DNA from: Elusimicrobiota bacterium
GTDB lineage: Bacteria > Elusimicrobiota > Elusimicrobia > Elusimicrobiales > UBA9959
Direction: 5' to 3'
NCBI GenBank assembly: GCA_027340875.1
Contig: DAIENX010000064.1
Coordinates: 1-11,666 of the forward strand
Length of the DNA: 11,666 nucleotides
In this document: positions 636-11,666 of the stretch, piece after piece
How positions within the stretch are numbered: position 1 is the first letter of the stretch
How the letters are laid out: each line of letters begins with the position of its first letter
Program-made: the position numbers and the translations under genes
The notes under the pieces: generated by a model
What the model saw: only the letters and a program-made list of their open reading frames with translations
What the model was told of the DNA's origin: nothing
The model's database searches: none

Positions 636-1901
636 ATGAAGAACCGCAGACCCGGCCAGATGGCCATAACAATTGTCATCAGCATCCTGCTGTTCCTGAT
701 GCTGATGTTCCCGGTCATGAACCTGTTCACGCGGAACGAGGGGAAATGGTCGGTCAAGGAGAAACAATCCACCGTGGCCTTCCACCTGGCCGAGGCGGGT
801 GTGGACCGGGCGTATTGGAAGATACTGGAGAGCGTTGACATGTGGAACGTCACCTCCACCGGCACGATCGCGGGCTATGATTTCGACCAGGTCTACGACG
901 ACATAGGCGGTGGTTACTACGCGATAAAGATAAGCTCCGACCCCACCAACCCGGACTCCAGGATAGTCGAGGCCGCGGGGAAGGACCTCGGCAGCAACCA
1001 GGTGCGCCGCATCCGCATGTACCTGGTTAACACCAACACCGGGGTGAAATTCGCCATAAGGTCGGAGAAGGTCCTGACCAATGGCGGAGGCAATCCGCAC
1101 GTGGAATGGGGGCCGGTGATCTCCAACGGCAGCATCATCGCCACCGGGCGCACCTTCCCGAGGTTCTATAGCGCCGGCCACGTCACCACGCAGGACGGCG
1201 GCTCGTCCACCGCCTCCACCGACGGCGTCTACTGGTGGTCGTACTACCCGGTCCCCTCCGCGCCGACCATCAACTTCGGGTTCTATCTTAGCTCGGCCAC
1301 GGGCGGCGGCGCCTCGCCCTGCGGCGGGAACTATTACACCATAGGCGACAGGACCTTCACGGGCTGCCATGACAAGAGCGGGAAGACCTACTATATCACC
1401 GGCAACGCCGTTTTCAAGTCCGGCGGGGCCGGCAACCATATAACCGGCAACGTCATAGCTCTCGGCAACGTCACCTTCGCCGGCAACGGCGGCTCCGCCA
1501 ACGCCCCGGACGGCAGCTACAATGCCGCGCTTCCCCCTTACGCCTGGAAGGAGTACGGGGCCAACTGGGCGCATTACAAGATCTTCGACCCGACCGGACC
1601 CGCCACTTACGCGGACGCGGTCGGTTCTAGCTACGTCGCGACGGGCAAGACCTACCCTCTCGCCGGGGTCCTGACGCACGGCATGCTTTACGCCGGCGGC
1701 AACATGGAGCTGTCCGGCGGCGGCAATGGCATCTTCCATGGCGTGGTCGTGTCGGCCAACGACAGCACTACGGACACTTCCAATTTCCTTATTTACTACG
1801 ACCCTGACATCGCGTCCAACATAAGGCTGTATACCAGCCCGGTGACCATAGTGAAGGGGACCTGGTACGAGGTCAAGGGCGAATGGCCGCCGGGACTGTG
1901 A
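636..1901 (+). CDS. PilX N-terminal domain (minor pilin-like) exported protein, 421 aa
   Basis: A short basic leader ending in Gly is followed by a hydrophobic helix (MKNRRPG|QMAITIVISILLFLMLMFPVM), resembling a class III/prepilin signal. The later AFHLAEAGVDRA motif is typical of PilX-N proteins. The C-terminal domain is Gly/Ser/Thr/Asn-rich. Confidence 0.75.
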   Translation: MKNRRPGQMAITIVISILLFLMLMFPVMNLFTRNEGKWSVKEKQSTVAFHLAEAGVDRAYWKILESVDMWNVTSTGTIAGYDFDQVYDDIGGGYYAIKISSDPTNPDSRIVEAAGKDLGSNQVRRIRMYLVNTNTGVKFAIRSEKVLTNGGGNPHVEWGPVISNGSIIATGRTFPRFYSAGHVTTQDGGSSTASTDGVYWWSYYPVPSAPTINFGFYLSSATGGGASPCGGNYYTIGDRTFTGCHDKSGKTYYITGNAVFKSGGAGNHITGNVIALGNVTFAGNGGSANAPDGSYNAALPPYAWKEYGANWAHYKIFDPTGPATYADAVGSSYVATGKTYPLAGVLTHGMLYAGGNMELSGGGNGIFHGVVVSANDSTTDTSNFLIYYDPDIASNIRLYTSPVTIVKGTWYEVKGEWPPGL

Positions 1902-2686
1902 GATCCCGCCGGGGGCTGGAGATAGCCGGCTTGGAGTTTTTTTTTGTACCGGAGGAAGGGGGCATCGTTCCAGCGCTGAGGCGCCGCTACGGCGCCTTCT
2001 CCCGCCCCGTCGGGGCCTGCCGCGAGTTCGAAGTCTCGTCCATCCCGAGGCGGGACCTGCCGTTCAGGCCGGCGGTGGTCCGGACCGGGGACAGGCTGAC
2101 GCTGAGACGCGGGGATTTCGACGCCTCGCTGGAGCTGTCCTCCGGCAGGGGTACGCTTAGGGCGGCACCCAACGCCCAGTGCCTGGACGCTTTTTTGCGC
2201 TCTTTGCTTAGCTCGCTGCTACTCCGCTCCGGCGGCCTTATGCTGCACTCGGCCGGCCTGCTGAGGAACGGCCGGGCCTATGTCTTCCTCGGCAAGTCCG
2301 GGGCCGGCAAGTCAACGCTTTCCAGGCTGGCCGCGGCCTCGGGAGGGGCCGAGGTGATCAGCGACGAGATGAATATGCTCAGGCCGGGGAAAGGCGGGTG
2401 GCTTGTCCACGGCTCCCCGTTCTGGGGGGAGATGCGGGCGGCGGGCAGGCCGGGCGCGTGGCCGCTGGGCGGCCTGTACGCGCTGGGCAAGGCCAGGGAG
2501 CATGCGCTCCGTCCCTGCGGCGCCGGCGAGGCGCTGAAACTGCTGCTGCGCTGCCTGGTGAATTTCGAAAGGGGAGAGGAGGCCGCGGCCCTGGCGCTGA
2601 GCAACGCCTGCGGCCTGCTGGGGAGCGTAAAGCCGGAGCGGCTTGAATTCACTAGGCGGGATGCCGCGTTCCTGGAGCTGATATGA
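1898..2686 (+). CDS. HPr kinase-related P-loop protein (putative peptide Ser/Thr kinase)
   Basis: Contains LHSAG, Walker A GKSGAGKST, and the acidic ISDE motif followed by GSPFWG, as in HprK-related proteins of PqqD/radical SAM cassettes. The likely start is GTG at 1898, overlapping the upstream TGA (GTGA); the ORF track start at 1883 is an alternative. Confidence 0.8.
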   Translation: MRSRRGLEIAGLEFFFVPEEGGIVPALRRRYGAFSRPVGACREFEVSSIPRRDLPFRPAVVRTGDRLTLRRGDFDASLELSSGRGTLRAAPNAQCLDAFLRSLLSSLLLRSGGLMLHSAGLLRNGRAYVFLGKSGAGKSTLSRLAAASGGAEVISDEMNMLRPGKGGWLVHGSPFWGEMRAAGRPGAWPLGGLYALGKAREHALRPCGAGEALKLLLRCLVNFERGEEAAALALSNACGLLGSVKPERLEFTRRDAAFLELI

Positions 2687-2955
2687 AAGACACTGCTGTC
2701 AGAATTCGGAAGGACCTGGCCTTCAGGCGCGTAGGCGAGGAGCTGTTCGTGGTGGACGCCGCCTCCGCCAGGCTGCACGAATTGAACGGCACCGCGGCCG
2801 TCATCTGGGAATGCCTGGCGGCCGGCCAGGACGAGGACGGCATCGTGGCGGCCCTCGCCGGGAAGTTCGAAGTGGACCGGGACGCGGCCCGCGCCGACTG
2901 CCGGGCCTTTATAAAAGAATTGATAAGTTCCGGTCTCCTTAAGAAATCGGTGTAA
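2683..2955 (+). CDS. PqqD-family RiPP recognition element (stand-alone RRE), 90 aa
   Basis: FRRVGEELFVVD...LHELNGTAAVIWECL...IVAALAGKFEVDRDAARADCRAFIKELISSGLL matches the three-strand, three-helix PqqD pattern. Its start overlaps the kinase stop (ATGA). Confidence 0.92.
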   Translation: MKDTAVRIRKDLAFRRVGEELFVVDAASARLHELNGTAAVIWECLAAGQDEDGIVAALAGKFEVDRDAARADCRAFIKELISSGLLKKSV

Positions 2956-2982: not shown

Positions 2983-3117
2983 ATGAAAAAGAAAAAATAT
3001 GAGAAGCCTTCCATCAAGACCGAGAAGGTCTTCGAGAAGGCCGCGCTGGCCTGCGGAAAGTGCACGAGCGGTCCCATAAGCCAGCTGGCCTGCAAGACCC
3101 TGAAGAAGTTCTCCTGA
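2983..3117 (+). CDS. Putative RiPP precursor peptide, 44 aa (not in ORF track)
   Basis: ATG 2983 to TGA 3115-3117 translates to MKKKKYEKPSIKTEKVFEKAALACGKCTSGPISQLACKTLKKFS. It has a YxxP-x-hydrophobic leader motif and three Cys in the C-terminal half. Codons are mostly G/C-ending after the first few. It fills the gap between the RRE and peptidase genes. Confidence 0.85.
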   Translation: MKKKKYEKPSIKTEKVFEKAALACGKCTSGPISQLACKTLKKFS

Positions 3118-3119
3118 AC

Positions 3120-3449
3120 ATGCCGGCCTGCTTCAGCCTGGAAGGCTCCAGCATGCTGCCGGTGTTCAGACCGGGCGAGCTGGTGCTGCTGAACGACGCA
3201 AAGCCTGGCCCAGGCGACTGCGCCGTATACCTGTTCAACGGGGCCAGGCTGCTGCACCGCGTGCTGGCCGTCACCGGAAAAGGGGCCTGGCTGGCCGACG
3301 ACGCCGGCCGGCTGGAGAGGCATTTCGTTCAGTTCGGCGACATCATCGGCACCGCGGTTTCCGGAGGCACGCTATCGCGGGGTAGGGTCGGGCTGGCCTA
3401 TTCCATCTCGAGGCGGATTTTTTCCCGCCTTTTCCTTTCCCATGGCTGA
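3120..3449 (+). CDS. S24/S26-family peptidase (signal peptidase-like), putative leader peptidase, 109 aa
   Basis: Catalytic-Ser box GSSMLPVFRPGELVL, then GDCAVY and LLHRV (His at the general-base position, as in Ser/His S26B-type enzymes). The start is most likely ATG 3120, 2 nt after the precursor stop, rather than the GTG at 3060 in the ORF track. Confidence 0.8.
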   Translation: MPACFSLEGSSMLPVFRPGELVLLNDAKPGPGDCAVYLFNGARLLHRVLAVTGKGAWLADDAGRLERHFVQFGDIIGTAVSGGTLSRGRVGLAYSISRRIFSRLFLSHG

Positions 3450-4476
3450 CCGCCTGCCCTCGGCCAGACTGAACCGCCTGACGCTGGAGCGCAATATCCC
3501 GGTCTCGGTCACCGCGGAGCTCACCCGCCGTTGCCCTCTCTCCTGCGGGCATTGCTACCTGCCGGAGACGCGCGGCCGGGCGGGGGTCCCTGGTGAGCTG
3601 TCGGCCGCCGCCTGGAAGCGCATCCTTTCCGACCTGGCCCGGTCCGGCGGCCTTTATCTGACCTTCACCGGCGGGGAGCCGCTGCTGCGCGAGGACCTGG
3701 CGGAGCTCTGCCGCCACGCGTCCTCCCTCAGGTTCGACGTAACCGTGTTCTCTACCGGCCTGGGCCTGACCCCGGCCCTGGCCAGTGAGCTTAAGGAAGC
3801 GGAGGTATCCTCTTTCGGGATAAGCTTCTATGGCCGCCCCGCCGTGCATGACCGGATCACCGGGTTCAAAGGCTCTTTCCGCCGCAGTCTGGCCGCGGCC
3901 AGGCTGCTGCGAAAAGCCGGGGTGCGGGTCAGGATGAAGTCGCCGTTGATGACCCTGAACGCGGGGCAGACCGGCTGGCTGACCCGCCTCTCCTCCGCGG
4001 AAGGCTTCGATGTCTCGTTCGACCCGGTTATAGCCCCGGCGAACGACGGCCATCCCGGCGTTTCCTCTTTACGGCTCTCCGGACCTGCCCTGGCGCGGGC
4101 GGTCAGAGAGGTGCCTCCTCCCCCATTCCCCGCGGATGCCGCGGCGGGGCCCGGAGCTGACGGATTTATCTGCGGCGCCGGCCGCAACGTCTGCTCCGTG
4201 GACCCTTCCGGAGATCTTTATCCCTGCCTGCAGCTTCCGGTCAGGCTGGGGAACCTCGCGCGAAACGGATTTTCCTCCATATGGCGGAATTCTCCCTGGC
4301 TGAAAAAGTGGCGCCGGCTTTCCCTGGCAGACCAGAAAGACTGCGTTCAATGCCGCGACAGGGAGTATTGCAGTTTTTGTCCCGGCATCAGCCTGCTGGA
4401 GGAAGGGAATGTGCTCGCGCCGAACCGGGCGGCCTGCGAAATGGCGGCTATTATGCGGCGCGCGGCCTGTGTATAA
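3442..4476 (+). CDS. Radical SAM/SPASM domain peptide maturase, 344 aa
   Basis: CxxxCxxC (CPLSCGHC) and FTGGEPLLR, plus a C-terminal SPASM pattern CGAG...VDPSGDLYPC...CVQC-x5-C-x2-C-x18-C. Overlaps the peptidase gene by 8 nt. Confidence 0.95.
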   Translation: MADRLPSARLNRLTLERNIPVSVTAELTRRCPLSCGHCYLPETRGRAGVPGELSAAAWKRILSDLARSGGLYLTFTGGEPLLREDLAELCRHASSLRFDVTVFSTGLGLTPALASELKEAEVSSFGISFYGRPAVHDRITGFKGSFRRSLAAARLLRKAGVRVRMKSPLMTLNAGQTGWLTRLSSAEGFDVSFDPVIAPANDGHPGVSSLRLSGPALARAVREVPPPPFPADAAAGPGADGFICGAGRNVCSVDPSGDLYPCLQLPVRLGNLARNGFSSIWRNSPWLKKWRRLSLADQKDCVQCRDREYCSFCPGISLLEEGNVLAPNRAACEMAAIMRRAACV

Positions 4477-4669: not shown

Positions 4670-5080
4670 ATGAGGATGAACCGCACTTTGGCTTATGGAT
4701 TGTCCTGCCTGCATTACCTGGGGCAGAACAACGGGGGCCAGTGGAACCAGGTGGCCGAGATCGCCCGCTTCCAGGGGCTGCCCGCGCCGTACTGCAACAA
4801 GGTGCTGCAGGCGCTGGTGCACGCGGGCTTCGTTGAGTCGCAGAAAGGCAAAGGCTACCGCCTGCGCAAGGACCTGGACGGCATCAGCGTCTGGCAGCTG
4901 ATGGAGGCGTTCACCTTCAACGGGGCGCCGAAAGCGGAGAAGGCACAGGTCTCCAACAAGCTCTACGAGACGCTGCGCGCTGAGGTCAACCACTGGCTGG
5001 TGGGCCTTACGGTGCAGGATATAGTGGAGATGATGAAGGAAGAGGAGCGGCGCGCGCGCGAAGTGACGGCGGAGGACTGA
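4670..5080 (+). CDS. Rrf2-family transcriptional regulator, 136 aa
   Basis: YGLSCLHYL...VAEIARFQGLPAPYCNKVLQALVHAGFVESQKGKGYRL...ISVWQLMEA...LTVQDIV fits the Rrf2 winged-helix pattern. A GGAG Shine-Dalgarno sequence is at 4658-4661. Confidence 0.88.
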   Translation: MRMNRTLAYGLSCLHYLGQNNGGQWNQVAEIARFQGLPAPYCNKVLQALVHAGFVESQKGKGYRLRKDLDGISVWQLMEAFTFNGAPKAEKAQVSNKLYETLRAEVNHWLVGLTVQDIVEMMKEEERRAREVTAED

Positions 5081-5091
5081 CTTTACAGGGT

Positions 5092-8000
5092 ATGTCTAAG
5101 GCTGCCGGATATTACGGAAGAGGGTGGCGGGCCGCTTTGCGGCCGCTGCTGCTGCTCTGCGCCGTGCTTTCGGCGTCGCCGGCCGCGGCCGATACCCGCA
5201 TCAAGACCGTGGAGTACAATTTCGGCGGCTACTATTCCAATACGGACAAGGCTTCGGGCTCGAAGACCACGTTCACCTCGCGCACCCTCAAGCTGCCGGA
5301 GAACGGGAAGGTCATACGCAGCGCCTGGCTGCATTACGAAGGCATAGCCGTCAGCGCCACCAACGTCAGCCCGCTGGTCATCTACTTCGACGCCGGCGCC
5401 GCCGCGAATACCGCCCGCTTTACCTCGGTCCAGTACACGGCCCAGTCCGGAGAGTCCATCCGGCTTTTCGCCAGGGCGGACGTCACGTCCGTCATTAACG
5501 CTCAGCTGGCCAACCTGGCCGCCGGGGCGCAGTTCACCGCCGGCGTGGCCATAACCGGCCCGGCCAGCAACATGCACAGCATGACGCTGTACGTCACCTA
5601 CGAGTACGACGACCAGTCCCCGCAGGAGGTTAAGACCGTCCGCTTCCCTGTTTATTCCGACTATGTCAACGGCATAGCGGCCTATACCGCCCAGCAGCCG
5701 GCCGGTACCAAAACAATGCAGTACCTGGCCGAGATAGCGGATTCCGGCTACAGCCTGCAGCAGCAGTGGGTGGAGTTGCGCGGCTTCAGGCAGTCCAACG
5801 GCGTCACCACCGACGGCACCATCTACGTCAATATAAACGGCGGCGCCAACGAGCCGACCATGAACATGGACGGCTCGCTTATCGATTCCTACGAATTCCG
5901 GTATCTCTCTAATTCCGACATCATGCCGGGCTTCTCTACAGGCACGGTGCAGAACCTGAACGTGGTCACCGTGCAGAGCCCCGTCAACACGCTTGGCGGC
6001 GAGGTGGTGCTGACCTATATAGCAAACTCCAACTCGGCCGTTAAGACCAAGACGGCCAAGACCTTCATAGGCCAGGGCCTGACCGCGGTCTCGAACGCGA
6101 TACTGGGCGCCCAGGTGTTCCTGCGCGAGGAGGGTATAACCATAAAGCGCGCCTACGCGCGCATAGTCGGGTCTTTCGATTCCACCACGAATACGGCGAT
6201 GCCGGTGGATTCCTCCATAGGCGGCGTCCTCATGCCGCAGCGCTCCTACGCGGTGCAGTCGCAGTTCGCGCAGATCTCCGGCTACCAGTTCTTCCACGAC
6301 ATGACCTCGGCGGCCCAGGCGGCCGGCTGGAGCAACGGCCTCCAGGTGGGAACTACCATTTACGCGGCCGGCAGCGCCACCGGCGCGCAGGGGATGGAAC
6401 TGATAATAACCTACGACTATACCAACGGCGCGGCGCACACGGACGACTACGAGGTGCTGGCCGGCAACGACACCAACGGCACCGTGCCCAGCGACACCTT
6501 CGCCTTCGGGGCCTGGTACCCTGAGACCGAGGGTTCTAAAACGCTGCGGGAGGCGTATACTTATACCGATTTCCTGAACAACCGCGGCACCACGCAGGAT
6601 TTCAACACCACGGTGGATTTCAACGGCAACGCCCCGGAGACGGTCTTTCACCGCACCACCACCGAGGACTGCACGGTAAACCAGTTCTACCAGAACCTGG
6701 TGCAGTTCAGCACCTTCCCCGCCGTGGTCACCGCCAACTACGCTCTCAGCTCCACGCGCGGCCTTATCGGCGGCCGCGCGGCCATAAACTACAGTTTCGT
6801 GCCCTTCCCCAAGCTGCCGGTGTCGCTCGTACAGAAGGCCAACGGCGCGGCCCTGGCGGCCGGAGCCTGGACCAACGCGCGGGAGCTGCGCTTCGAGGGC
6901 GTGCTGGCCAGCTCGATGAACGTGGACAATATCGCGCTGGTGGCGGAGGTGAAGCCGAACGCCTCTGTCTTCGACGAGAGCGCCCTTTCCACCGGCCCGG
7001 TCTTCAACTACAATACCGTGGCGGCCTCCAGTTACGCCGTGGTCTCGGGCCTGGTCTCCGGCACCGTCTATCATTGGCGGGCCGCCGGTTTCGGGGACGG
7101 CGGCCGCGGGCGCTGGGTGAACAGGGGCGGCAATCCGGACTTCGGCGTGGACTATTCCAGCCCGCCGGCGCCGGCCATGGCGGCCATAGTCCCGGCCGAC
7201 AGGGTGAACCTGAACGCCAGCCCTGCTCTGCTCGACTGGGAGGACGTGACGGACATTGACGGCTCGGGCCTGAAGAACTACGAGCTGCAGGTGGCCACTT
7301 CCTCGGACTTCACGACCGTCACCTACAGCTCGAGCCCCCTGGCCTCAATGGCGCAGCCCGCCGCTCTGGCCCAGAACTACTATTACTGGCGCGTGCGGGC
7401 GCTGGACAACGCGGGTAACACCGGTATATATTCCTCCACGCGCGCCTTCCGGGTGGACCTCTCGACGCCGGTCATAGCCTCCAACATGGGGACAGGCGAC
7501 CAGGTCTGGCGCAATACGAACAGCGGCCTCTACGACGTGGACTTCAACGACGACGGCGGCTCGCTGATCTCGAAGCTGCAGGTGCGCGCCACTTCGGGGC
7601 CAGCGCAGACCGGCACCGACTTTAGCGGCGGCTGGGTGGACCTGTCTCTGACGATAAATGCCACCTATTACGCCACCGACTGGGCCCTGCCCGCCGCCTT
7701 CTGGACCAGCCTGCAGAGCTGGACCACCAACTATATCTCGGTAAGGGCCATAGATTACTCCACCAACACGGCGACGCTGTCGGACGCTTTCAAGGTCTTC
7801 AAGGACACGGTACCTCCCGTGGTGACCAACGGCGAGGCCGGGGGGGACCTGACCTGGCGCAAGGCCGGCCGCAGCTACAACGTGGACTTCGCCGACCCTT
7901 ATTCTAAGCTGGCCGGGGCCGTCTACGCGGCCCGCGCGGCTGCCGGCGGCACTGGCGCGGTGCTCTTCTCCACCACGGCGCTGGCCGGCGTGGGCGGCGC

Positions 8001-11000
8001 TTCGTATACCGCGGACTGGTCGCTGAACTTTGCGGGACTGGGCGGTGACTCCACCAATTATATAACGGTGGAGGTCTACGACATAGCCGGCAACACCGCC
8101 ACGGTTACCGACGCCTTCAGGGTGCTCAAGGACACCACGCCGCCGTCCTATACCAACAACGTCGCCGGCGGGGACCTGACCTGGCGCAAGGCCGCCGGCA
8201 CCTCCTACGACTTCCGGTTCGCTGACTCCGCCGGCTCCTGGCTGAACGGCGCCGTCTACAGTGCCTGGACCGGGCCCGGCAACACCGGCGCGCTCAAAGT
8301 GTCCGCCGCTCCCGTTCCCGGCGTCTCCGGACCTTCTTACGTGACTCCCTGGCAGGTGGCTTTCGCCTCGCTGGCCGGAGACAGCACCAATTACATCACG
8401 GTGGAGTTCTATGACATGGCCGGGAACACCACCACCGTCACGGACGCTTTCAGGGTGCTCAAGGACACCACGGCGCCCTCGGTGCCTTCCCCGGTCTCTC
8501 CGGCGGACGGCTATAAGACCAACCTGGCGAACCTTTCATTCGACTGGGGCGATTCCTCCGACGGGGCGGGCTCGGGCGTCACTAACTACCTGCTGCAGCT
8601 GGCCACCGCCGCGGATTTCACCACTATCTCCTATGCCAGCCAGCCGGTCGTCTCGGAGGCCTTCGTTCCGCTGGCGGCGCAGAACACCTATTACTGGCGC
8701 GTGGCCTCCAGCGACACGGCCGGGAATTATTCCGGTTTCAGCGCTTACCGCTCGCTGCTGGTGGACCTGTCCACGCCCACGATAACGGATTCCCAGAGCG
8801 GAGACTCGAAGTGGCGCGATTCCAACAGCGGACTGTACAGCGTGTTCTTCGACGACGCCGGCGGTTCGCTGCTCTCGTACTTCCAGATAAAGGTCACCAG
8901 CGGGCCTTCCCAGACCGGCACCACGCTCTACGACTGGACCACCATCGCCTCCGGCATCAATTCCGCCTCTTATTCGTCGCAGTGGGCCCTGCCCGCGGCA
9001 GTATGGAACTCCATACCCAGCGGCACCACCGGCTACGTCAGCGCGCGCGCCTACGACAACGTGGGCAACTCCACCGCGTCCGCCAACGACCTGTTCTACG
9101 TGCTCAAGGACACGGTGCCGGCCACCATAACCGACTCGCAGGCCGGGGACGATACCTGGCGCAACTCCGGCCCGGGGGACATCTACAACGTCTCCTTCGC
9201 CGACACCGGCGGCTCGCTGCTTGACAGCATGCAGTACACGGCCTGGACCGGCCCCGGCCGCACCGGCACGAAGCGGCTGGACTGGACCTTCATCTCCTCC
9301 GGCCCCGCCGGCGTCCCGTCCTACGCCGCGCCGTGGGGCGTCTCCGTCTCCTCCTGGCCCGCCCTGGCCGAGGGCTATAACTACATCTCCGTGCGGGTCT
9401 GGGACGTGGCCGGCACCACCACCTCCCTCGACGACGTTTTCTACGTGCTGAAGGACACCACCGCGCCCTCCGCCCAGAACGGCATGGCCGGCGGGGACGC
9501 TCTGTGGCAGAAGGACCCCGGCAAGCTCTACAACGTGGACTTCTACGACACCGGCGGCTCGCTGCTGAACTCGATAGAATACTCGGTCTGGTCGGAGCCT
9601 GGGCAGAAGGGCACGCAGCGCAAGACCTGGAGCCCCATAGTCACCGCGCCGCTGGGCGCGGCCTCGTATGTTTCCGACTGGCCGGTGGACTTCACCTCCC
9701 TGGCCGAGGGCGCGGCCACCAACTATATCTCGCTGCGGTTCACGGACCTCGCCGGCAATTCCTCCACCTACGCCGACGCCTTCTATGTCAGCAAGGACAA
9801 GACGCTGCCGGTCATAGTGGACAACCAGTTCGGGGACGATTCCTGGCGCAGTTCCTCCGGCACGGCCTACGACGTGGGCTTCGCGGACGCCGGCGGCTCG
9901 CTGCTCTCGAGCTTCGAGCTGAAGATAACGACCGGCCCCGCCCTGACGGGAACGCTGGTGCAGGACTGGACCGCGCAGCAGTCCGCCATAAATTCGGCCT
10001 CCTACCCGGCGGGCTGGAAGCTCGCGCAGGCGCAGTGGGCCGCGCTGCCGGCCGGCATCTCCTACGTTTCGGCCCGCGTCACGGACAACGCAGGCAACCA
10101 GCAGGCGAACAACGACGTCTTCTACGTCCTGAAGGACACCTCGCCGCCGTCCATAGCGGACAACCAGCCCGGGGACTCCTCCTGGCGCGCCGTCTCCGGC
10201 CTCTATAACGTGGACTTCGCCGACGAGGGAGGCTCGCTGCTCTCCGGCTTCCAGGTGAAGGCGACTACCGGCCCGGGGCAGACCGGGACGCTGGCGGCCG
10301 ACTGGACCGACGCCGCGACCGGCATTAACGCGGCCTCCTATGCCGCCGACTGGCAGCTGCCCTCCGCCTTCTGGAACCTGCTGCCGTCCGGCACCAGCTA
10401 TATCTCGGTACGGGTGTTCGACCATGCAGGCTCCACTGTCTCGCTTACCGACGCCTTCTACGTGCTTAAGGACACTTCCGCCCCCGTTATAGCCAACGGC
10501 CAGGCCGGCGACGACGCCTGGCGCCGCTTCGGCGGCACCGCCTACAGCGTGGGCTTCGGCGACGCCGGCGCCGGCCTCGCTTCGGCGGCCTACGAAGCCT
10601 GGACCGGGCCCGGGCTCACCGGCGTCAACGCGGTCCCGCTGACGGCCATCCCCGGCGTTTCAGGAGCGGCCTACTCCACGCCCTGGAGCGTCGACTTCAG
10701 CCTGCTGGCGCAGGGCACCAACTACATCAGCGTCACGGTCACCGACCAGCTGGGCCATTCCGCCGCGCTGCAGGACGCCTTCCGCGTGCTGAAGGACAAC
10801 GGCTCGCCGGTCATCACCGACAACCAGGCCGGGGACGACGTCTGGCGCGGGACGGGCGGCACCCTGTACAACGTGGATTTCGGGGACCTCACCTCCGGCC
10901 TGACCACCGCGCAGTACCGCATGACATCCCTGCCGGCCCAGGGCGGCACGGTACTCAAGGACTGGACCGACATAGTCTCCTCCCCCGGAGGCCTTTCCTC

Positions 11001-11666
11001 CTACACTGCGGACTGGCCCGTAGATTTCGCGGCCATACCCAGCGGTACCACCGGTTACGTCAGCGTGCGCATCTATGACAATGCCGGCAATCCGGCGCAG
11101 GTGAACGACGCTTTCCACGTTCTCAAGGACACCGTCCCGCCTTACATGGTCATAGTCAGCACTCCGGCCGACGGCTACGGTCCCTACCTCGCCAACCCTG
11201 GCGCCGTCTTCGACGTGGACTTCTTCGACGCCGGCGGTTCCGGCATAGTCGCGCCGCAGTACCGCGTGACCGAAGGCCCCGGCGGTACCGGCGTTCTGGT
11301 CAAGGACTGGACCAATATCGCCACGCTCTCCGGAGCTACGTATTACACGCAGAACTGGGGGGCGGACTTCTATTCGCTCTCCCAGCTGCCGGCCACCAAC
11401 TACTTCTCGCTGCGCGTGACCGACCTGGCCGGCGGCACCTCGGACTACGCGGACGCCTTCAAGCTCTTCCGCTCCAGCTTCCCTATGGGACTCGCCATCA
11501 ACCAGGCCGGCGACGCCGTCTGGCGCACCGCCAATAACGGGACTTACAACGTGGACTTCTTCAGCAACAACGCCGCGCTGAACCTCAGCTCCTTCTCGGT
11601 GCAGGCCTGGACGCAGCCCGGCCGCACCGGCGAGCTCAGCGCGGACTGGGCCAAGGTGCTGGACAT
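5092..11666 (+). CDS. Giant secreted/surface protein with FnIII-like and tandem Ig-like repeats, >2190 aa, 3'-truncated (not in ORF track)
   Basis: Frame +1 reads open from ATG 5092 to the window end. It has a Sec signal peptide (MSKAAGYYGRGWRAALRPLLLLCAVLSASPAAA|DTRIK), a Thr/Ser/Gly/Ala/Asp/Trp-rich composition, YYWRV FnIII-like motifs and recurring DxAGN...DAFxVLKDTxxP units. Confidence 0.93.
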   Translation, partial: MSKAAGYYGRGWRAALRPLLLLCAVLSASPAAADTRIKTVEYNFGGYYSNTDKASGSKTTFTSRTLKLPENGKVIRSAWLHYEGIAVSATNVSPLVIYFDAGAAANTARFTSVQYTAQSGESIRLFARADVTSVINAQLANLAAGAQFTAGVAITGPASNMHSMTLYVTYEYDDQSPQEVKTVRFPVYSDYVNGIAAYTAQQPAGTKTMQYLAEIADSGYSLQQQWVELRGFRQSNGVTTDGTIYVNINGGANEPTMNMDGSLIDSYEFRYLSNSDIMPGFSTGTVQNLNVVTVQSPVNTLGGEVVLTYIANSNSAVKTKTAKTFIGQGLTAVSNAILGAQVFLREEGITIKRAYARIVGSFDSTTNTAMPVDSSIGGVLMPQRSYAVQSQFAQISGYQFFHDMTSAAQAAGWSNGLQVGTTIYAAGSATGAQGMELIITYDYTNGAAHTDDYEVLAGNDTNGTVPSDTFAFGAWYPETEGSKTLREAYTYTDFLNNRGTTQDFNTTVDFNGNAPETVFHRTTTEDCTVNQFYQNLVQFSTFPAVVTANYALSSTRGLIGGRAAINYSFVPFPKLPVSLVQKANGAALAAGAWTNARELRFEGVLASSMNVDNIALVAEVKPNASVFDESALSTGPVFNYNTVAASSYAVVSGLVSGTVYHWRAAGFGDGGRGRWVNRGGNPDFGVDYSSPPAPAMAAIVPADRVNLNASPALLDWEDVTDIDGSGLKNYELQVATSSDFTTVTYSSSPLASMAQPAALAQNYYYWRVRALDNAGNTGIYSSTRAFRVDLSTPVIASNMGTGDQVWRNTNSGLYDVDFNDDGGSLISKLQVRATSGPAQTGTDFSGGWVDLSLTINATYYATDWALPAAFWTSLQSWTTNYISVRAIDYSTNTATLSDAFKVFKDTVPPVVTNGEAGGDLTWRKAGRSYNVDFADPYSKLAGAVYAARAAAGGTGAVLFSTTALAGVGGASYTADWSLNFAGLGGDSTNYITVEVYDIAGNTATVTDAFRVLKDTTPPSYTNNVAGGDLTWRKAAGTSYDFRFADSAGSWLNGAVYSAWTGPGNTGALKVSAAPVPGVSGPSYVTPWQVAFASLAGDSTNYITVEFYDMAGNTTTVTDAFRVLKDTTAPSVPSPVSPADGYKTNLANLSFDWGDSSDGAGSGVTNYLLQLATAADFTTISYASQPVVSEAFVPLAAQNTYYWRVASSDTAGNYSGFSAYRSLLVDLSTPTITDSQSGDSKWRDSNSGLYSVFFDDAGGSLLSYFQIKVTSGPSQTGTTLYDWTTIASGINSASYSSQWALPAAVWNSIPSGTTGYVSARAYDNVGNSTASANDLFYVLKDTVPATITDSQAGDDTWRNSGPGDIYNVSFADTGGSLLDSMQYTAWTGPGRTGTKRLDWTFISSGPAGVPSYAAPWGVSVSSWPALAEGYNYISVRVWDVAGTTTSLDDVFYVLKDTTAPSAQNGMAGGDALWQKDPGKLYNVDFYDTGGSLLNSIEYSVWSEPGQKGTQRKTWSPIVTAPLGAASYVSDWPVDFTSLAEGAATNYISLRFTDLAGNSSTYADAFYVSKDKTLPVIVDNQFGDDSWRSSSGTAYDVGFADAGGSLLSSFELKITTGPALTGTLVQDWTAQQSAINSASYPAGWKLAQAQWAALPAGISYVSARVTDNAGNQQANNDVFYVLKDTSPPSIADNQPGDSSWRAVSGLYNVDFADEGGSLLSGFQVKATTGPGQTGTLAADWTDAATGINAASYAADWQLPSAFWNLLPSGTSYISVRVFDHAGSTVSLTDAFYVLKDTSAPVIANGQAGDDAWRRFGGTAYSVGFGDAGAGLASAAYEAWTGPGLTGVNAVPLTAIPGVSGAAYSTPWSVDFSLLAQGTNYISVTVTDQLGHSAALQDAFRVLKDNGSPVITDNQAGDDVWRGTGGTLYNVDFGDLTSGLTTAQYRMTSLPAQGGTVLKDWTDIVSSPGGLSSYTADWPVDFAAIPSGTTGYVSVRIYDNAGNPAQVNDAFHVLKDTVPPYMVIVSTPADGYGPYLANPGAVFDVDFFDAGGSGIVAPQYRVTEGPGGTGVLVKDWTNIATLSGATYYTQNWGADFYSLSQLPATNYFSLRVTDLAGGTSDYADAFKLFRSSFPMGLAINQAGDAVWRTANNGTYNVDFFSNNAALNLSSFSVQAWTQPGRTGELSADWAKVLD
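7453..11666 (+). repeat. Array of ~108-115 aa Ig-like coding repeats (11 complete plus 1 partial) interrupted by one FnIII-like domain
   Basis: KD(T/K/N) boundary motifs occur at 7801, 8128, 8461, 9106, 9451, 9793, 10132, 10468, 10792 and 11125. Spacing is 324-345 nt, except 645 nt across the FnIII-like insert at ~8461-8763. Confidence 0.88.

Follow-up and report, generated by a model that had tools for sequence, protein, structure and literature searches.

A conserved 44-residue peptide gene of Elusimicrobiota and its possible maturation by an LPP-like module with a sactisynthase-like radical SAM enzyme

An open reading frame of 44 codons in the window (the whole stretch of DNA analysed, 11,666 nucleotides of an Elusimicrobiota contig) is a real, conserved gene under purifying selection, and almost certainly encodes the raw precursor of a RiPP for the enzymes of the neighbouring genes. 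The selection on this gene, its linkage and co-occurrence with four enzymes and the intact catalytic motifs of those enzymes were all observed directly. We propose, at a probability of about 0.45, that the product is a RiPP uniting the leader, kinase and peptidase module of linear polyphosphorylated peptides (LPP) with a sactisynthase-like radical SAM enzyme. The cassette lies on the forward strand in the order kinase, PqqD/RRE, peptide, S26 peptidase and radical SAM/SPASM enzyme, with gene ends that overlap or nearly abut. The features of the window are as follows.

1883..2686, +: HprK/PEPCK-fold kinase with H122, Walker A GxSGxGK and D161-E162; start codon uncertain
2683..2955, +: stand-alone PqqD/RRE (PF05402, E=5e-16), overlapping the stop codon of the kinase gene
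2983..3117, +: gene of the 44-aa precursor peptide, with homologues and under purifying selection; outside the Pfam and NCBIfam families
2998..3015, +: YxxPxI motif, residues 6-11, with a predicted RRE-binding role taken from the LppA-LppB structure
3031..3039, +: F-E-(T/K), putative S26 cleavage motif by analogy to LPP, with the cut after residue 19
3040..3114, +: predicted 25-residue core with Cys24, Lys26, Cys27, Pro31, Gln34, Cys37 and Ser44, from conservation
3052-3054, 3061-3063, 3091-3093 and 3112-3114, +: core codons for Cys24, Cys27, Cys37 and Ser44
3120..3449, +: soluble S24/S26 (SipW/LppS-like) peptidase, S11-H46-D61, starting 2 nt past the peptide stop
3442..4476, +: radical SAM/SPASM maturase with C31/C35/C38 and C244, C262, C301, C304, C310, C313, C332
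4497-4524, +: near-consensus sigma-70-like promoter (11/12) before the Rrf2 gene
4670-5080, +: Rrf2 gene, in the family often found between the cassette and the giant gene
5092..11666, +: giant secreted Ig/Fn3-repeat protein of more than 2,191 codons, running off the contig

The precursor gene, its range and its neighbours

Translation of 2983-3117 (+) gives the 44 residues described in an earlier, sequence-only reading of this DNA, with YEKPSI and C-x2-C-x9-C. Such a combination is rare in the genome: among 8,623 ATG ORFs of 35-60 aa, YxxPx[ILV] occurs early in 16, and only 2 of these 16 have at least three Cys. The GC3 of the gene (0.82) is similar to that of neighbouring genes. Over 39 codons of 24 sequences (24 of 26 loci, two being unparsed by the peptide pattern), pN was 0.11, pS 0.61 and dN/dS 0.095, in pairs that are not independent; the third codon position varied in 37 of the 39 codons, and the first and the second in 14 each. 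A search for homologous small ORFs in syntenic clusters had been proposed as a check, and these were found in 25 of 60 relatives (E<=9.4e-16), beside the same enzymes. Within the 3-kb loci of these 25 relatives the S26 gene is adjacent in all 25, the kinase and PqqD genes are present in 23 and the radical SAM gene in 23. The peptide, kinase, RRE and S26 genes each occur in one copy in this genome. Three RNA runs from the same study gave no coverage of the cassette, a result that speaks neither for nor against its expression. The description of the gene as unannotated holds for Pfam and NCBIfam, but many homologues are called as hypothetical proteins and six stand in a published precursor table; the named homologues are from Elusimicrobiota. 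It is also correct that a Shine-Dalgarno sequence is absent, with zero SD-like 4-mers before the ORF; such a 4-mer lies upstream in 11 of the 23 close loci scored. The 10-nt repeat that accompanies the LAC motif does lie at 3045-3054 and 3084-3093, and the duplication of the motif proved incidental, the codon runs being identical in only 13 of 26 loci and the second LAC not being maintained across the phylum. As a functional or duplicated unit the repeat was rejected, since similar repeats occur in 5% of random 135-nt windows.

The family extends well beyond these relatives. A close profile matched 45 of 301 genomes of the phylum and gave 430 representatives at 50% identity, while a wider profile matched 1,363 of 5,275 candidate clusters at 90% identity. 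A radical SAM gene was in range in 19 of the 20 phylum loci fetched. An exact DNA pattern scan found at least 125 stretches, 80 of them with flanks, in what is a pattern-biased sample as regards taxon counts; the 80 matches listed are mostly from Acidobacteriota, with others from Elusimicrobiota, Armatimonadota, Methylomirabilota and a few more groups, and the same pattern had 0 matches in viral contigs. The peptide was parsed in 79 loci among the matches listed, which hold a radical SAM gene in 58 cases, a kinase in 58, PqqD in 55, S26 in 51, a PF14907 protein in 21 and an ABC transporter in about 11.

Among 80 genomes of the family, 53 have the peptide. A radical SAM match at E<=1e-60 was obtained in 48 genomes, every one of which also has the peptide; three further peptide genomes carry a divergent, adjacent radical SAM copy, for an orthologue total of 51 of 53. 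The kinase is found in all 53 peptide genomes (in three on another contig), and 22 of the 80 have neither, in genomes that as kin are not independent. No orthologous radical SAM gene was found in G009 (84% complete), which keeps a three-Cys peptide, kinase, RRE and S26, the last with no radical SAM gene after it (L177), or in G004 (90% complete), whose contig ends within the S26 gene. Five genomes have the kinase and lack the peptide; three of these are contig-end cases, and the others are G035, where a cassette remnant consists of only the kinase and the RRE (L197), and G343, where the order is RRE, kinase, radical SAM and nucleotidyltransferase and a search for the peptide detected none (L199). 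At L194, L195 and L196 a relocated kinase gene is preceded by genes for a metallophosphoesterase and for a WbqC or DegT-family protein.

A PF14907 nucleotidyltransferase was considered as a specific partner of the cassette and was rejected as a shown link, because it occurs in 67 of the 80 genomes, many of them without the peptide. The sole PF14907 gene of this genome lies on another contig (L176; C65, 112429-113280, -), two genes from an HD-domain gene that is similar, at its N-terminus, to the gene just upstream of the kinase elsewhere in Elusimicrobiota. In G342 and G212 a PF14907 gene stands directly upstream of the kinase.

In 14 of 20 phylum loci the cassette is followed, at a distance of a few kb at most, by a homologue of the giant secreted protein. 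In five of the 20 (L031, L032, L033, L041 and L042) the S26 protein is fused to the N-terminus of the giant protein through a signal-peptide-like stretch, and at L039 such a fusion is followed by a frameshift; the fusions all fall in one weakly supported clade and are probably one event. A different secreted family of 500-1,000 aa stands beside the cassette in 55 of the 79 mostly acidobacterial loci among the matches listed, without a Pfam match in the 4 of 4 members tested and with a conserved C-terminal motif like C-A-V-K-L-T-Q-x-x-L-Q. Additional copies of the peptide alternate with large genes for secreted proteins at L079 and L117/L118; one of these large genes encodes a pro-kumamolisin (S53-type) protease. 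Upstream of the cassette, positions 1-562 and 636-1901 (+) hold two paralogous ORFs in tandem, which closely resemble each other in their C-terminal parts, the complete one having no Pfam family; in relatives, ORFs of this kind come after genes with prepilin-like N-termini.

Enzymes, leader and core

The HMM matches of the kinase are to HprK_rel_A/B and ScmC, all below cutoff. Its catalytic motifs are kept in 71 homologues, and its structural model (pLDDT 92) matches PEPCK and HprK/P in a fold search, while a PDB sequence search with the kinase profile gave P-loop matches only. The model TIGR02228 (archaeal-type signal peptidase) is matched by all 16 aligned S26 proteins, this genome's copy being below the cutoff. 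His46 of the S26 triad is present in 65 of 65 sequences and Asp61 in 64 of 65, and the nucleophile is Ser in 58 and Cys in 6 (L034, L035, L038, L040, L044 and L049, all with His and Asp kept). A fold search with the S26 protein returned weak LexA and signal peptidase matches, the best at E=0.006 and none at E<=0.001.

The maturase is a radical SAM enzyme without a fused RRE. It has the CxxxCxxC motif and the SPASM/Twitch auxiliary-cluster Cys by which sactipeptide enzymes are recognized; its best PDB match is SkfB (E=4.5e-40), its top NCBIfam matches are NirJ, PqqE and AhbD, and the next-best radical SAM paralogue in the genome is 29% identical. Contig C65 also holds eight weak tandem tblastn matches to the maturase within 18 kb (20000-38100, -). 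Precord et al. defined six active-site positions for a sactisynthase proximity test (PMC10288494). At these positions the maturase reads Y-T-F-S-L-Q, SkfB Y-T-F-S-Q-L, CteB F-F-T-S-H-Q and PqqE S-S-I-S-H-A, and StsB is given as Y-T-I-S-K-L (PMC10288494), so that within a comparison of these four enzymes the maturase agrees with SkfB at 4/6, StsB at 3/6, CteB at 2/6 and PqqE at 1/6. The maturases of the clade whose peptides have two Cys show Y-S-K-S-V-Q in 44 of 45 cases, with Lys at position 3. The presence of Cys27 in the peptide covaries perfectly with the radical SAM site residues; since the change maps to a single split (support 99) of a quickly built tree, we count it as one event.

Tyr6 and Pro9 of the leader are invariant in 77 close and 25 phylum-wide sequences. 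In the LPP system, LppB residues L32-N33, D70 and F74 hold the leader Tyr and Pro, with Asp70 contacting the Tyr (PMC13381572), and the adjacent PqqD protein, whose best PDB matches are TbiB1 and LppB, aligns L34-N35, D72 and F76 with them. The conserved residues on both sides support the view that the peptide is a RiPP precursor with a YxxP leader predicted to bind the RRE. The leader had been called lasso-type, for which we found little reason: it has more in common with LPP leaders, and Asp and Glu are missing from the core. A search of the ESM Atlas gave unnamed clusters only, the nearest named one being a lasso-leader family at 0.77, which is a lead only.

The boundary between leader and core had been drawn after residue 23, and is probably to be moved to residue 19. 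As described in the available text of PMC13381572, LPP leaders carry YxxP...FET, the SpI-like Ser-His-Asp enzyme LppS cuts after the Thr, and cleavage dropped upon change of this T-1. The motif FET (here FEK) falls at residues 17-19 of our family; the LPP-like leader and the matching RRE residues place the predicted cut after residue 19, leaving residues 20-44 as the core. From the best 150 distant representatives we took 139 peptides (11 were unparsed and two mis-registered), and Phe is at -3 in 131 and Thr at -1 in 112 of these 139. Thr is at -1 in 248 of 285 fetched peptides and Lys in 4 of 285; the rare Lys at 3037-3039 of the window is common to the nearest relative G023 and L048. LppS has been modelled as using an N-terminal helix on LppB (PMC13381572), and the S26 proteins of Elusimicrobiota are without a helix of this type. 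A complex prediction for S26, RRE and precursor scored 0.02 and gave no usable answer.

The most constant parts of the core are its first and distal Cys, a Lys and the terminal Ser. In the same 139 of the best 150 distant representatives, the terminal residue is Ser in 137 (366 of 369 among distinct cores), the first Cys is kept in 137, Lys26 in 136 and Leu at core position 3 in 134, while a Cys seven residues before the end is found in 123; in another count, 132 of 146 peptides have the distal Cys at precisely this distance from the terminus. Only 41 of the 139 keep the middle Cys, and 94 are two-Cys members without Cys27. The three-Cys core is therefore right for this peptide and its subfamily (each of the 20 phylum loci fetched encodes it, together with the terminal Ser), but it does not describe the whole family. 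The proposal that the Cys are thioether donors fares similarly: a thioether would be the likeliest product of the radical SAM reaction as judged from sequence, but only the first and distal Cys are family-wide. It was correctly observed that the core lacks Trp, Tyr and His for aromatic cross-links. Neither the near-invariant terminal Ser accompanied by a kinase nor the invariant Lys26 had been remarked upon earlier; this Ser is likely the target of the kinase.

The modal loop between the Cys is equally long in the two- and three-Cys subfamilies. In loops that are longer by one residue, Gln is at distal Cys-3 in 43 of 70 and at proximal Cys+7 in 3 of 70, and Pro is at distal Cys-6 in 69 of 70. 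Gln and Pro thus track the distal Cys, which indicates that length varies within the turn, and a rigid rule by which each Cys links to i+7 was rejected for the same reason. The core appears from its sequences to consist of a first block x-A-L-x-C-G-K-(C), a connecting turn and a second block (P)-x2-Q-x2-C-x6-S.

Possible maturation and function

The chemistry of all the steps that follow is one that we infer. The stand-alone RRE would very probably bind YxxPxI and present the peptide, by analogy to LppB. The radical SAM/SPASM enzyme would then, with fair probability, make at least one thioether from a Cys to a carbon. The wiring that we favour, though only as a guess, would join the sulphur of Cys27 to the C-alpha of Gln34 across the Gly-Pro turn and close a Cys24-Cys37 disulfide, by analogy to sporulation killing factor (SKF), which has a Cys4-Met12 thioether and a Cys1-Cys16 disulfide (PMC8172795). 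SKF thus combines a single sactionine with a single disulfide, on a core of the C-x2-C...C pattern (PMC8172795, PMC6231123). Where a member has only two Cys, this Gln might be within reach of the first one; as most members are without Cys27 and their clade has a different active-site profile, a single wiring may misfit the whole family. The HprK-like kinase would be expected, on balance, to add one or more phosphates to Ser44. LppK phosphorylates Ser3 of the core (PMC13381572), whereas PsmK and PadeK act on a C-terminal Ser (PMC6993621); position 3 is Leu here and the only invariant Ser is terminal, which favours a site of the PsmK/PadeK type. The unlinked PF14907 nucleotidyltransferase may add a sugar, though we hold this to be somewhat unlikely. 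Finally, it is likely that the S26 peptidase would cut after residue 19 and release a 25-mer, the unmodified core of which has a calculated monoisotopic mass of 2525.3 Da. The invariance of Lys26 (136 of 139 of the best 150) lies outside the proposed scheme.

Two other accounts of the radical SAM step have to be weighed. All three Cys might be thioether donors, giving -6 Da and no free Cys, through unnested rings, a bond of Cys37 to the C-alpha of Ser44, or four-residue X-x-x-C rings. StsB does make three sactionines from three Cys, and our family lies within the curated putative sacti-/ranthipeptide set of Precord et al. (PMC10288494); the spacing of Cys37 and Ser44 is fixed at 7 (132/146), and the A-x-x-C and Q-x-x-C patterns are conserved. 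Cys27 is, however, missing from most distant members, and donors at 24, 27 and 37 would misfit one nested hairpin in a 25-mer. Because sactionine acceptor residues usually vary, the near-absolute terminal Ser is better explained by the kinase, and we consider a three-donor core rather improbable. The enzyme could also make no thioether, but act on Lys26 or Gly25 of the CGK motif, epimerise a residue, or oxidatively decarboxylate the (phospho)Ser terminus in the manner of MftC on its C-terminal residue, the two family-wide Cys then forming a disulfide or binding a metal. The invariance of Lys26, which in the distant set equals that of the Cys, the equal modal loop in both subfamilies, which resembles that of a disulfide, the decarboxylases and PqqE among the top HMM matches, the Lys at active-site position 3 of the two-Cys clade, and G009, which keeps all its Cys where an orthologous enzyme went undetected, are consistent with this. 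The best structural relative by sequence is nevertheless the sactisynthase SkfB, with 4/6 site residues against 1/6 for PqqE, and aromatic cross-links would find no Trp, Tyr or His in the core; a reaction without a thioether seems unlikely on these grounds.

The role of the peptidase and the nature of the ORF itself could also be read differently. SipW processes the products of its neighbours, and the S26 peptidase may process the giant secreted protein instead of the leader, with the peptide released by another protease or left uncut. The fusions to the giant protein (5/20 phylum loci and the frameshifted case), the Lys at -1 here and the missing LppS-type helix point in this direction. However, in the fusions S26 precedes the signal-peptide-like stretch, away from the export cleavage site, and should for that reason remain cytoplasmic; in Acidobacteriota, too, S26 comes after the peptide, with secreted proteins of a different family nearby, and FE(T) is conserved as in LPP. 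We therefore regard such a role as improbable, and leader cleavage by S26 is retained in the proposed scheme. It is very improbable indeed that the ORF arose by chance, or that it encodes a small protein which stays unmodified and serves in regulation or metal binding. The ORF has no Shine-Dalgarno motif and does contain CxxC, which can bind metal, but a dN/dS of about 0.1, tight co-occurrence with four maturation genes across phyla and the leader-type motif pair all argue for a precursor.

The single copy, the strongly conserved core and the stable place by secreted-protein genes would fit an envelope or signalling role better than a diversifying antibiotic. A more speculative idea, which we think has only a small chance of being correct, is that the mature peptide is a thioether-stapled envelope part whose terminal Ser carries a (pyro)phosphate-linked sugar, serving as a glycan primer, tag or tether. 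It is similarly doubtful that the peptide is made at the membrane together with the giant secreted proteins. The hints are the synteny with the giant protein, the S26 fusion, the second secreted family with extra peptide copies between its genes, the relocated kinase near WbqC or DegT genes in three genomes and the location of LPP clusters in capsule loci (PMC13381572). Shared regulation or inherited gene order explains the proximity of the secreted-protein genes equally well.

Relation to known systems

The precursor family is already in print. Rows 2896-2901 of the supplementary xlsx of Precord 2023 (PMC10288494) list six precursors as "Other Uncharacterized", SSN group 16, and 5 of these 6 match, over the listed length, peptides at L186, L018, L021, L009 and L033; the identity of our close set (A1) to the query peptide is 68-93%. 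That study predicted six uncharacterised groups of more than five sequences to be sactisynthase substrates, and group 16 is probably one of the six. The kinase, S26 peptidase, terminal Ser and cleavage site are not mentioned for group 16 in the available text of PMC10288494, and the two-Cys Acidobacteriota arm is not in its table, with zero ALSCGK or ALTCGK rows. A literature search, in which few subscription journals were covered, found no paper describing the cassette or the finished molecule. While every enzyme type here has precedent and the precursors were already tabulated, this is a large RiPP family, with at least 1,363 clusters at 90% identity, mostly from uncultured Elusimicrobiota and soil Acidobacteriota, and it brings together modules that have until now been described separately, the LPP RRE/S26/HprK set and a sactisynthase-like radical SAM enzyme. 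The parts of the cassette are small, soluble and single-copy here and so are directly testable. The two- and three-Cys subfamilies, with Lys and Phe respectively at the active site, provide a natural pair for testing active-site prediction, and their association with giant secreted proteins offers a lead on the role of phosphorylated RiPPs.

The LPP system (LppA/B/K/S/N/D, Bacillota) described by Popov et al. 2026 (PMC13381572) shares with our family the YxxP...FET leader (FEK here, with a spacing from Tyr to FET two residues shorter than in LppA), a discrete Tyr-reading RRE, an SpI-like Ser-His-Asp peptidase and an HprK-like kinase. The nucleotidyltransferase (PF14907) and ABC transporter of LPP are found in only part of the family loci, and both PF14907 and an exporter are absent from this cassette; PF14907 is on C65 here, and is adjacent in 21 of 79 loci among the matches listed. 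Radical SAM enzymes have 0 mentions in the LPP main text (PMC13381572), whereas here the radical SAM gene overlaps the S26 gene and, unlike in LPP, one lies within the fetched flanks of 58 of the 79 loci among the matches listed. LPP cores are variable, mostly Cys-free and phosphorylated on Ser3 (PMC13381572), in contrast to the conserved, Cys-bearing core with Leu3 and terminal Ser seen here.

Paeninodin (PadeK) and pseudomycoidin (PsmK/PsmN) share an HprK-like kinase acting on a C-terminal Ser and a YxxP-type leader, and phosphorylated lasso peptides also have an uncharacterised nucleotidyltransferase (PMC6993621). Neither a lasso cyclase nor a B2 cysteine protease is among the cassette genes, which have the radical SAM enzyme and S26 instead, and the core has no Asp or Glu, hence none at position 7-9. 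SKF (SkfA/SkfB) and StsA/StsB have a similar C-x2-C...C core pattern; however, in SkfB the RRE is part of the enzyme, which also carries a Twitch domain (PMC6231123), where the RRE here is stand-alone, SKF is head-to-tail cyclised and without a kinase, and the leaders are unrelated to this family. SCIFF and PapA ranthipeptides have a six-Cys core or Cys-x3-Asp, whereas there are three Cys and no core Asp here, and the SCIFF model gave weak matches to only 2 of 25 members.

SynChlorMet (ScmC/D/E/F; TIGR04248-04251) shares a kinase-like gene, PqqD and a radical SAM/SPASM enzyme, but scores against the Scm models are far below cutoff (28/125, 18/100, 96/400 and 57/400), no Scm precursor model was matched, and SynChlorMet has two or more radical SAM genes where this cassette has one, plus S26. 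The uncharacterised group 6 precursors of the Precord table, which we take to be ScmA-like, combine a WxxP leader with, in many cases, L-x-x-C-K, and most of them end in Ser or Thr (PMC10288494). They hint that radical SAM peptides linked to kinases may form a wider superfamily. The family described here is a member of none of the LPP, lasso, SCIFF/PapA ranthipeptide or SynChlorMet groups, and by analogy it may work like LPP, but with a cross-link in addition and with phosphorylation at a site of the paeninodin type.
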